This document shows, one piece after another, positions 11,342 to 12,634 of a stretch of DNA of 64,000 nucleotides. Made by a program: the position numbers and the translations under genes. The stretch comes from an uncultured Gammaproteobacteria bacterium (GTDB taxonomy: Bacteria; Pseudomonadota; Gammaproteobacteria; CAWCPV01), in contig CAWCPV010000014.1 of assembly GCA_963797555.1 (NCBI GenBank), positions 224,001 through 288,000 of the forward strand, written 5' to 3'. Positions within the stretch are counted from its first letter, which is position 1, and the number at the start of each line of letters is the position of its first letter. Under the pieces are notes generated by a model that made no database searches, was not told where the DNA came from, and saw only the letters and a program-made list of their open reading frames with translations.

Positions 11342-11407
11342 TGAAATGCGCCGAAGGCGCCTCAAAGTCCCCCTCGCCCGTTGGCGGGAGAGCAACCGTG
11401 TTTGCTG

Positions 11408-12362
11408 TCAAGTGCAAGAGACGAGTGCAGGGTTCCACGGTGTGCGGTTTTTGACCATGGCGTTGAGGATGGTGAGCAGCTTTCGCATACAAGCCACCAT
11501 CGCGACCTTGTGCTCTTTGCCTGCTGTCAGGCGCTGGTAGAAGAGTCTGATGACTGGATTCCAACGCACCGCAGACAGCGTGGCCATGTACAGGGCGGCG
11601 CGCAGCGCAGCGCGTCCGCCCCAGATCCTACGCTTGCCCCGGAACTTGCCGCTGTCGCAATTGAAGGGTGCCAGGCCGGCGAGGGCTGCGATGCTACGGC
11701 GATTGAGCGTGCCCAACTCCGGCAGCTGGGCAATCAGAGAGCGGGAGAGTCCCGGTCCGACTCCCGGCACGCCTTGCAGCAGATCATCCTGCTCGCGCCA
11801 CACGGGGCTGTCCTGGACGGCCTGGGTAAGGTCTTTATCGAGGTCCTTCAGGCGCTTCTCCAGCCACAGGAGGTGTGCCTGGATGTCTTTGGCGACCCCG
11901 CCGCGAAGCGCTCCCCAGGCGGTTGTGCTCGGCGGTGTGCATGTCAAGCAGTTGGCGCCTGCGTCCCAGCAGTGCCTCCAGCTCCTGGGTCTGGGCGTCC
12001 TTGAGAGGCCGCAGAGGCGGTCTGACCGCCTGGGCGAACTGGGCCAGCAGGTGTGCGTCGATGCTATCGCTCTTGGCCAATTTGCCAGTCGCCTTGGCGA
12101 AATCGCGCGTCTGGCGCGGGTTGACCACCACCACCGGGAGCTTCACGGCAGCGAGCGCCGCCGCCACAGGCACCTCCAGGCCCCCGGTGGCCTCCAGCAC
12201 GATGAGCGCTGGAGTAATGCGCTCAAGACGCTTGACCAGCACCGCCATACCCCGCGTATCGTGGCTGACCACCCAATGCTCCCCCTCAGGGCAGGTCGCG
12301 ACATCGAGGGTCTGCTTGGACACATCGATTCCGACAAACTGTTCAGCGTTGTTGGTGTTCAT
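11408..12362 (-). CDS. IS110 DEDD recombinase (frameshift ~11900)
   Basis: GIDVSK, VLEATG, KSDSIDA, GVPGVG, DSGK, ACMRKLL. Confidence 0.88.
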
Positions 12363-12530
12363 GGCTCTGGCTCCCAACCTTGCAGATACGGGCTCACTGA
12401 CCCAGGCAACCGTTCGGGTTACTCAGAGATGATGGACCTGACGACCCAAGCTCTCCCACGGTGTTTCCCACCCAGGGCAAGGACGATCTGCCAGGTCCTG
12501 AACCTCTCTCACTTTAAATCTCCACTATCC
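12363..12530 (-). ncRNA. Putative IS110 bridge RNA
   Basis: Contains segments matching the target (CCTTGCCCT, GGGAGAG) and the donor (ACGGTTGC, TGCAAG) in IS621-like order. Confidence 0.75.
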
Positions 12531-12634
12531 ATAAACATACAAGGGTTAGGGTGAGGGAAACCGGCCATGGCGTGACAAACGTTTTCATGTTCTGGGGCGG
12601 CGAAGCTCGCCAGGACCGGTTAGGCTACTCCTTT

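Follow-up and report, generated by a model that had tools for sequence, protein, structure and literature searches.

A 1.15-kb IS110-family insertion sequence from an uncultured gammaproteobacterium with the sequence anatomy of a natural bridge-RNA element

The 64,000-nucleotide stretch of contig CAWCPV010000014.1 analysed here (positions 224,001 to 288,000 of the forward strand in assembly GCA_963797555.1 of an uncultured Gammaproteobacteria bacterium; referred to as the window) carries on its minus strand a 1.15-kb insertion sequence of the IS110 subgroup which, judging from its letters and those of its relatives, very probably (at a probability of about 0.93) moves by RNA-guided recombination and represents a natural bridge-RNA element. 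Such RNA-guided bridge recombinase systems were described in 2024 in two reports (Durrant et al. 2024, PMC11208160; Hiraizumi et al. 2024, PMC11208158). Our reading of the element as one of the IS621 type is based on (i) covariation in the stems of its predicted RNA, (ii) covariation of guides and flanking DNA in 28 families of related elements, and (iii) a recombinase homologous to that of IS621. The architecture had been proposed in an earlier note made from the letters alone, and it is borne out: guide strands, use of the core and the promoter across the joined right and left ends (RE-LE) all agree with the published system.

The limits of the element are fixed by comparison with a second full copy in the same genome (copy 2, locus L002). 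This copy, of 1,154 bp and 95% identity, has the same ends, donor loop, promoter halves and right target guide. Identity between the two copies sets in exactly at CTTGTATG and ends with ...GGTTGCT, followed by the common right flank CTCCCG, so that both ends and the same right half-site are fixed in both copies. The boundary features are as follows.

11391..12543, minus strand: complete IS110-family element of 1,153 bp, counted with the CT core on either side (limits of identity with copy 2)
12542..12543, minus strand: left core dinucleotide CT (copy comparison; CT at both junctions in relatives with readable or parsed ends)
11391..11392, minus strand: right core dinucleotide CT (copy comparison and relatives' ends)
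12544..12550, minus strand: left target half-site CCTAACC (7/9 against the left target guide, core counted)
11386..11390, minus strand: right target half-site CTCCC (together with the core the exact complement of GGGAGAG)

On the minus strand the left junction of the window copy (copy 1) reads ...CCCTCACCCTAACC-CT-TGTATG (in a longer reading ...CCCTCACCCTAACC-CT-TGTATGTTTATGG) and the right junction ...ACACGGTTG-CT-CTCCCG (in a longer reading ...TTGACAGCAAACACGGTTG-CT-CTCCCGCCAACGGGCGAGGGGG), and the donor ACGGTTG-CT-TGTAT and target CCTAACC-CT-CTCCC which had been reconstructed beforehand both follow from these letters. The base after the right half-site is a G, for which wobble pairing with the U at 12458 is possible. 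The two cores enclose a non-coding left end of 180 nt, a frameshifted gene and about 17 bp past its stop codon.

All guides are located within the left non-coding end (12541-12363), upstream of the recombinase gene, and the six motifs read there and at the ends by the earlier note are found on the minus strand: CCTTGCCCT at 12482-12474, GGGAGAG at 12457-12451, ACGGTTGC at 12413-12406, TGCAAG at 12384-12379, TTGACA at 11411-11406 and TATGTT at 12539-12534. In terms of the predicted RNA, this corresponds to the following features.

12365..12527, minus strand: predicted bridge RNA of about 160 nt, both ends estimated (position relative to the -10 box; structure from folding and alignment)
12474..12482, minus strand: left target guide CCUUGCC+CU, first internal loop, 5' side (homologous to the stretches of relatives that match their own left flanks)
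12451..12457, minus strand: right target guide GGGAG+AG, first internal loop, 3' side (at the homologous position, 21/28 families match their own right flank at 7/7)
12406..12413, minus strand: left donor guide ACGGUUG+C (equals the right end ACGGTTG-C, 8/8)
12379..12384, minus strand: right donor guide UGCAAG (complement of CT-TGTA at 5/6, plus one G opposite T)

The two target guides agree with the actual site at 7/9 (left) and 7/7 (right), and the G opposite T in the right donor guide is present in most of the 28 families, with an A in its place at locus L028. Chance expectation was assessed with 20,000 mononucleotide shuffles of the 180-nt leader. An exact right-target 7-mer appeared in 650 of them, an exact left-donor 8-mer in 74, and a left-target match of at least 7/9 in 1,563; a right-donor match of at least 5/6 was reached by 9,462 shuffles, so that this match is uninformative when taken alone. 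Right-target and left-donor matches occurred jointly in three shuffles, and all four matches in their order in none (0/20,000).

An alignment of 32 leader segments, evaluated by RNAalifold and by counting pairs, supports four helices comprising 23 pairs, with 97.1% of the cells paired and compensatory changes at 13 pairs. None of 500 shuffled controls was as good on any measure, and sliding the partners by one to three columns reduced pairing to 32-46%. Most of the compensatory changes are found in the outer stem of the first loop (9 of its 12 pairs; alignment columns 21-33 with 74-85).

12485..12497, minus strand: 5' strand of the outer stem of the target-binding loop (alignment covariation)
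12435..12446, minus strand: 3' strand of the outer stem of the target-binding loop (alignment covariation)
12460..12472, minus strand: inner hairpin of the target-binding loop, GGUG-GGAAA-CACC, 4 pairs (helix 2)
12416..12418, minus strand: 5' strand CCC of the outer stem of the donor-binding loop, with its partner GGG at 12375-12373 (helix 3; 4 pairs in the alignment)
12390..12403, minus strand: inner hairpin of the donor-binding loop, GGG...CCC, 3 pairs (helix 4; conserved, no compensatory change)

In this structure the two target guides occupy the two sides of the first internal loop and the two donor guides the two sides of the second, in line with the expectation of the earlier note that the guides lie in internal loops. 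A further pairing proposed by RNAalifold, between UUGC in the left and GCAA in the right donor guide, is a consequence of the two guides reading across the same core and was not counted as structure. A minimum-energy fold in which the two target guides are paired with each other was set aside for the loops supported by covariation. The 3' strand of the outer stem of the donor loop (GGGAG, 12371-12375) overlaps what is likely the ribosome-binding site, 8-13 nt ahead of the start codon at 12362.

Evidence that the guides read DNA comes from the relatives, for which the best 80 of 202 stretches encoding a relative were taken from a scan of one genome per species. Their recombinases are 54-63% identical to that of the window, and they belong mostly to assemblies of Dehalococcoidia, Nitrospira and Nitrospinales. 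Several of these genomes carry 3 to 14 copies, so that the ends of the elements are known independently of any idea about guides. Together with the two copies of the present genome, 69 of 82 loci could be parsed for their ends, and 13 failed at contig edges or for missing motifs. Parsed left ends all read CT-TGTAT (with one mismatch allowed by the parsing rule) and parsed right ends all read TTGAC(A/T)...AC(A/G)G(T/C)(T/C)G-CT, while the flanks vary by family. Three loci at which the parsing rule had picked the wrong left end (L011, L045 and L048) were dropped before the counts; by eye, their flanks beyond the first exact CTTGTAT fit their guides. The 66 remaining loci fall into 28 distinct target-loop families.

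When left flank plus core is compared with the 5' loop side, the mean is 7.1/9 within the same family and 5.0/9 across families, and none of 10,000 permutations reached the mean for own families. For the complement of core plus right flank and the 3' side of the loop, the mean is 6.7/7 with 21 of 28 families perfect, as compared with a cross-family mean of 4.3/7 and 4 perfect matches in 744; again no permutation of 10,000 came up to the own-family mean. When the window's loops were scored with the targets of other families, none was as good as its own (0/27 left, 0/25 right). In 28/28 families the left donor guide keeps pace with the right end, through the variants ACAGTTG, ACGGTTG, ACAGCTG and ACAGTCG. 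Loci L004-L083, from Dehalococcoidia, Nitrospira, Nitrospinales and cyanobacterial genomes, are like the window element in RNA layout and promoter halves, with near-identical donor ends AC(A/G)GTTG-CT-TGTAT, whereas target guides and target differ family by family. The window's guide pair CCUUGCC-CU plus GGGAG-AG was found, among the genomes compared, in this one only; a Geomonas locus (L071) has the right guide in common with it and not the left.

Further agreement with the bridge-RNA architecture is found at the handshake bases, whose guide role is described in PMC11208158, and in a promoter that is split between the two ends.

12449..12450, minus strand: target-loop handshake CU, with its C able to pair with donor G7 (Watson-Crick at donor position 7 in 28/28 families)
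12377..12378, minus strand: donor-loop handshake GU; the G can pair with target C7 (pairing of the first base across 28 families)
12534..12539, minus strand: -10 box TATGTT in the left end (sequence; relatives' ends)
11406..11411, minus strand: -35 box TTGACA in the right end (sequence; relatives' ends)

The donor-loop handshake base forms a Watson-Crick pair with target position 7 in 23 of 28 families and a wobble pair in 4 of 28 (for example U-A in three families and A-T in two), whereas against the cognate DNA the handshake bases form no Watson-Crick pair and score 0/28 and 3/28 (wobble only). This covariation is modest, as 53% of cross-family pairs also pair. Of 27 distinct ends of relatives, 25 have TTGAC(A/T/C) at a distance of exactly 13 nt ahead of the core, and 25 have TATNTT or TATAAT at left-end bases 3-8. 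In the window, 13 nt after TTGACA plus CT plus TG add up to the 17 nt to TATGTT that had been predicted for the circularised element, and a promoter would be rebuilt across the RE-LE circle junction. The stop codon of the recombinase gene (TGA, 11410-11408) sits within the -35 box.

The recombinase gene of the window copy encodes both domains of the family, in different frames.

11905..12362, minus strand: N-terminal part of the recombinase, DEDD/RuvC-like domain; frame lost near 11905 (Pfam PF01548, E 1e-23)
11408..11904, minus strand: C-terminal part of the recombinase, Tnp domain with the serine motif FNCDSGKF, other frame (Pfam PF02371, E 1.1e-17)

The DEDD_Tnp_IS110 part extends from 12362 to 11835 and the Transposase_20 part, in a different frame, from 11947 to 11408; the frameshift noticed earlier is real in this assembly. 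Contigs of two other sequencing runs, possibly from the same sample as the assembly, have the same letters across it. Relative to copy 2, the window gene has one extra base within a cluster of substitutions at 11910-11891 and, further on, a 3-bp deletion; copy 2 is read in a single uninterrupted frame from its ATG, of 318 aa, in contrast to the break near 11905 in the window copy. Residues 8-311 of the copy-2 protein align with IS621 (8wt6, E 2.3e-44) and ISCro4 (9t56, E 4.3e-46). The catalytic residues of IS621 are given as D11, E60, D102, D105 and S241 in PMC11208158, and copy 2 has D, E, D, D and S-G at the IS621 positions D11, E60, D102, D105 and S241-G242 (chain numbering of IS621 offset by 2 in the alignment), with GIDVS corresponding to D11, LEATG to E60, KSDSIDA to D102/D105 and CDSGK to S241-G242. 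The window copy likewise encodes all catalytic residues, split over the two frames.

In comparison with IS621 from E. coli, the element agrees in its two recombinase domains and in the catalytic residues D, E, D, D and S-G. The published IS621 features (PMC11208160) include left guides that pair with the bottom strand, right guides that pair with the top strand, a core that takes part in all four pairings, and a circle that rebuilds a promoter across RE-LE; the window element resembles them in an RNA drawn from the left end, two internal loops each enclosing a hairpin, handshake bases 3' of the right guides, the CT core in all four guide pairings and a promoter split over right and left ends. 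The differences are that the proteins are distantly similar (full-length E 2e-44), that the IS621 donor has A6 and T7 according to PMC11208158, whereas the left half of the donor here ends in TG, and that the target here is another 14-mer. A blastn search of the leader against 5,426 E. coli genomes returned one weak hit (E 0.2) and did not retrieve IS621 itself. The hit falls on a plasmid, 9 nt ahead of a gene annotated as IS110 family transposase (L100:1380-1577; NZ_JBRNHD010000002.1, 106861-107058), and represents the donor loop of a further IS110 element. That leader has the left end CT-TGTATG and the same two-loop layout, with a 5' side of the first loop that resembles its own left flank and a donor loop ACAAUUGC ... 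UGCAAG; the record annotates no RNA at this place.

As regards the target, copy 1 is inserted in a repeat of about 140 bp, of which the two interrupted parts are as follows.

12544..12626, minus strand: left part of the repeat (blastn: 19 other places in the genome, about 80 bp)
11324..11390, minus strand: right part of the repeat with the hairpins CTCCCGCC..GGCGAGGGG and GGCGCC..GGCGC (blastn: 12 other places, about 60 bp)

Uninterrupted copies of the repeat read ...cgccatgaccggttCCCTCACCCCTAGCC-CT-CTCCCGCcaGCGGGCGAGGGGGA..GGCGCCTTCGGCGCA..., and the 14-mer has a hairpin on either side, one of them with a 14-bp stem (by RNA folding parameters, which are a rough guide). The repeat has two or three hairpins and is present in roughly 12-19 copies (for example C14:3311-3462, C14:42204-42057 and C9:139570-139437); in the window it is situated between two genes of the same strand and begins a few bases past the stop codon of the upstream gene (12635). 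Beyond the window, the assembly (5.35 Mb, 64.6% G+C, 20 contigs) contains one further full copy, copy 2, and one 90-bp match. The latter (L003:1500-1630, C15 about 33766-33895) is a remnant in which a piece of the gene is fused to the last 30 bp or so of the right end, ending ACACGGTTGCT-CTCCCGCAAGCGGGCGAGGGGGA; its insertion site is a further copy of the repeat, immediately behind a methyltransferase-like open reading frame (ORF). The proposal that the element is programmed for a repetitive extragenic palindromic (REP) target fits two of the three insertion events: copy 1 and the remnant are in the repeat of about 140 bp, and copy 2 is in unique DNA.

The left junction of copy 2 is unusual. 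Its right half-site is CT-CTCCCG as in copy 1, and its left junction reads ...GACCTTCCC-CTTGTATGTTCAT-CTTGTATGTTTATGG. This junction (L002:1488-1513, contig 14 about 361785-361810) includes a near-tandem 13-bp duplicate, CTTGTATGTTCAT followed by CTTGTATGTTTAT, which repeats the core and bases 1-11 of the left end and could be due to slippage or be the footprint of an earlier event. If the duplicate is discounted, the left half-site of copy 2 would read CCTTCCC-CT, which agrees with the left guide of copy 1 at 8/9.

A search of the genome for the 14-mers specified by the guides of either copy found no perfect match. With one mismatch, the guides of copy 1 find 11 sites, five of which are CCTAGCC-CT-CTCCC, the motif of the uninterrupted repeat; the commonest form of the repeat agrees with the left guide at 8/9, and the used site CCTAACC is off the guide at two central positions. 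A left match of 7/9 is within the usual range of the relatives and consistent with the zero to two mismatches reported in PMC11208160 for natural elements. Tolerance of mismatches in the left guide, as suggested previously, is possible, and equally a change of guide or site after the insertion. The left guides of the two copies differ, UCCCUGC-CU (copy 2, L002:1555-1575) versus CCUUGCC-CU (window 12484-12473), by one substitution and one deleted base. The guides of copy 2 find four sites with one mismatch, including ACCCTGC-CT-CTCCC at C16:141778, which belongs to a shorter-spaced variant of the repeat. Because the guide of copy 1 fits best the main form of the repeat and that of copy 2 the shorter-spaced variant, one may speculate, as a rather doubtful suggestion from the letters of two copies, that they capture a natural reprogramming of the bridge RNA, with the element tracking sub-families of its landing pad.

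The setting recalls that of ISPpu10, an IS110 element from Pseudomonas putida, for which a preprint (10.64898/2026.03.19.712850) describes insertions in copies of a conserved intergenic repeat with a GC-rich stem-loop beside the base-paired site. The window 14-mer is likewise flanked by hairpins, and by analogy these might act as a structural gate; here, in contrast to ISPpu10, copy 2 is inserted without hairpins.

Taken together, the following mechanism is inferred. In an excised circle, the right end with the -35 box TTGACA would be joined to the left end with the -10 box TATGTT over one CT core, and from the promoter formed in this way the left non-coding end would be transcribed as a bridge RNA of about 160 nt with two internal loops. 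The guides CCUUGCC-CU and GGGAG-AG of the first loop would read the 14-bp site CCTTGCC-CT-CTCCC, and those of the second loop the joined ends of the element, ACGGTTG-CT-TGTAT. The recombinase, with its DEDD RuvC-like and serine Tnp domains, would hold both DNAs on the RNA and exchange strands at the CT core. Copy 1 would have landed in the hairpin-bearing repeat, the commonest form of which is one position off the ideal site. Since its own recombinase is frameshifted, copy 1 would depend for any present-day mobility on the intact enzyme of copy 2, acting in trans.

Several observations weigh against this reading and have to be set beside those in its favour. The recombinase gene of the window copy is broken, its left target guide fits the actual site at 7/9 only, and copy 2 lies outside the repeat with flanks that are unique in the genome, its left guide matching its own flank poorly (5/9 at best). 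Among the relatives, locus L004, whose left end is degenerate, misses on the left (4/9) and L064 on the right (4/7). The pairs of helix 4, the right donor guide and the target-loop handshake bases are invariant and add no covariation, and the fold of the single sequence is not unusually stable (z -1.0 and -1.3). An Rfam search of the stretch returned no matching family, with four rows at E 8.1-9.6 that amount to noise. Finally, neither a transcript nor a circle junction nor an empty site was seen in four sequencing runs, which consist of low-depth contigs and are uninformative on these points: they contained no joints and no piece across the whole stretch, and the left junction was bridged by two records. 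The listing of sequencing runs had no RNA run with the stretch, and twelve DNA rows with at most 0.42 of the sampled words.

The alternative which best survives these points is that the element is a dead relic, i.e., that the RNA anatomy is a fossil, that neither copy moves and that the guide matches merely record a past insertion. We consider this unlikely, though to be taken seriously: the window recombinase is frameshifted with the same letters in the two other runs (possibly of the same sample), the 5.35-Mb genome has no more than two full copies and a fragment, the copies have diverged by 5%, and the left guide of copy 2 no longer fits its own site. Moreover, a near-identical copy was absent from the 60 other genomes searched; a match was found in 7 of 61 genomes including the window's own, and those outside it are all partial, at no more than 86% identity. 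On the other hand, copy 2 has retained an uninterrupted frame of 318 aa with all catalytic residues, the two copies do not differ in donor loop, ends or promoter halves, and over their first 700 bp they are nearly the same, in keeping with recent gene conversion or with selection.

It is very improbable that the four guide matches are due to chance and that the leader is only a 5' untranslated region controlling translation of the transposase. Each match is short, a right-donor match of the observed quality arises in nearly half of the shuffles, the fold z-scores are weak, and the outer stem of the donor loop reaches into the likely ribosome-binding site; this explanation is, however, contradicted by the covariation of guides and flanks in 28 families, with no permutation as good, and all four matches in order were absent from every shuffled leader, while the compensatory changes in the stems back a two-loop structure. 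Least probable of all is an element of the IS1111 (seekRNA) type, a subgroup in which the guide RNA is encoded 3' of the gene: the roughly 17 bp between stop codon and right core leave no room for an RNA, and every guide is in the 180-nt left end.

The surroundings are rich in insertion sequences. Mobile genes near the element in the window include an IstB_IS21 helper ATPase (E 1e-71) and a gene fragment carrying DDE_Tnp_1 and Tn5 dimerisation domains (9389-10453 and 13186-13767, both on the plus strand). Several other IS110-family subfamilies occupy 23 places in the genome (for example C3:306630-307070 and C5:190991-191281), some with in-frame TAG stops. Another multi-copy repeat containing ...ggacctgggagcagctcaccgacttTCACTGGCTCTCCCgcgcccgcctcaagaccgcc is found at at least 15 places (for example C3:151185 and C4:56710) and probably belongs to another mobile element or a gene family.

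While the known mechanism is unchanged by our finding, reading the window element as a bridge-RNA system adds a natural representative, from a soil bacterium with GC-rich DNA, to a class of systems now under development for genome editing. With it come 28 related pairs of guide and target on one conserved donor, AC(A/G)GTTG-CT-TGTAT, although this clade might already be covered by the natural guide-target pairs listed in the published work. The 28 pairs constitute natural data on which positions of the left guide tolerate a mismatch, the behaviour of the handshake bases and the upkeep of a split promoter. The two copies with different left guides, together with a hairpin-flanked site, offer a small and testable case for how such an element is retargeted and how it stays out of genes.

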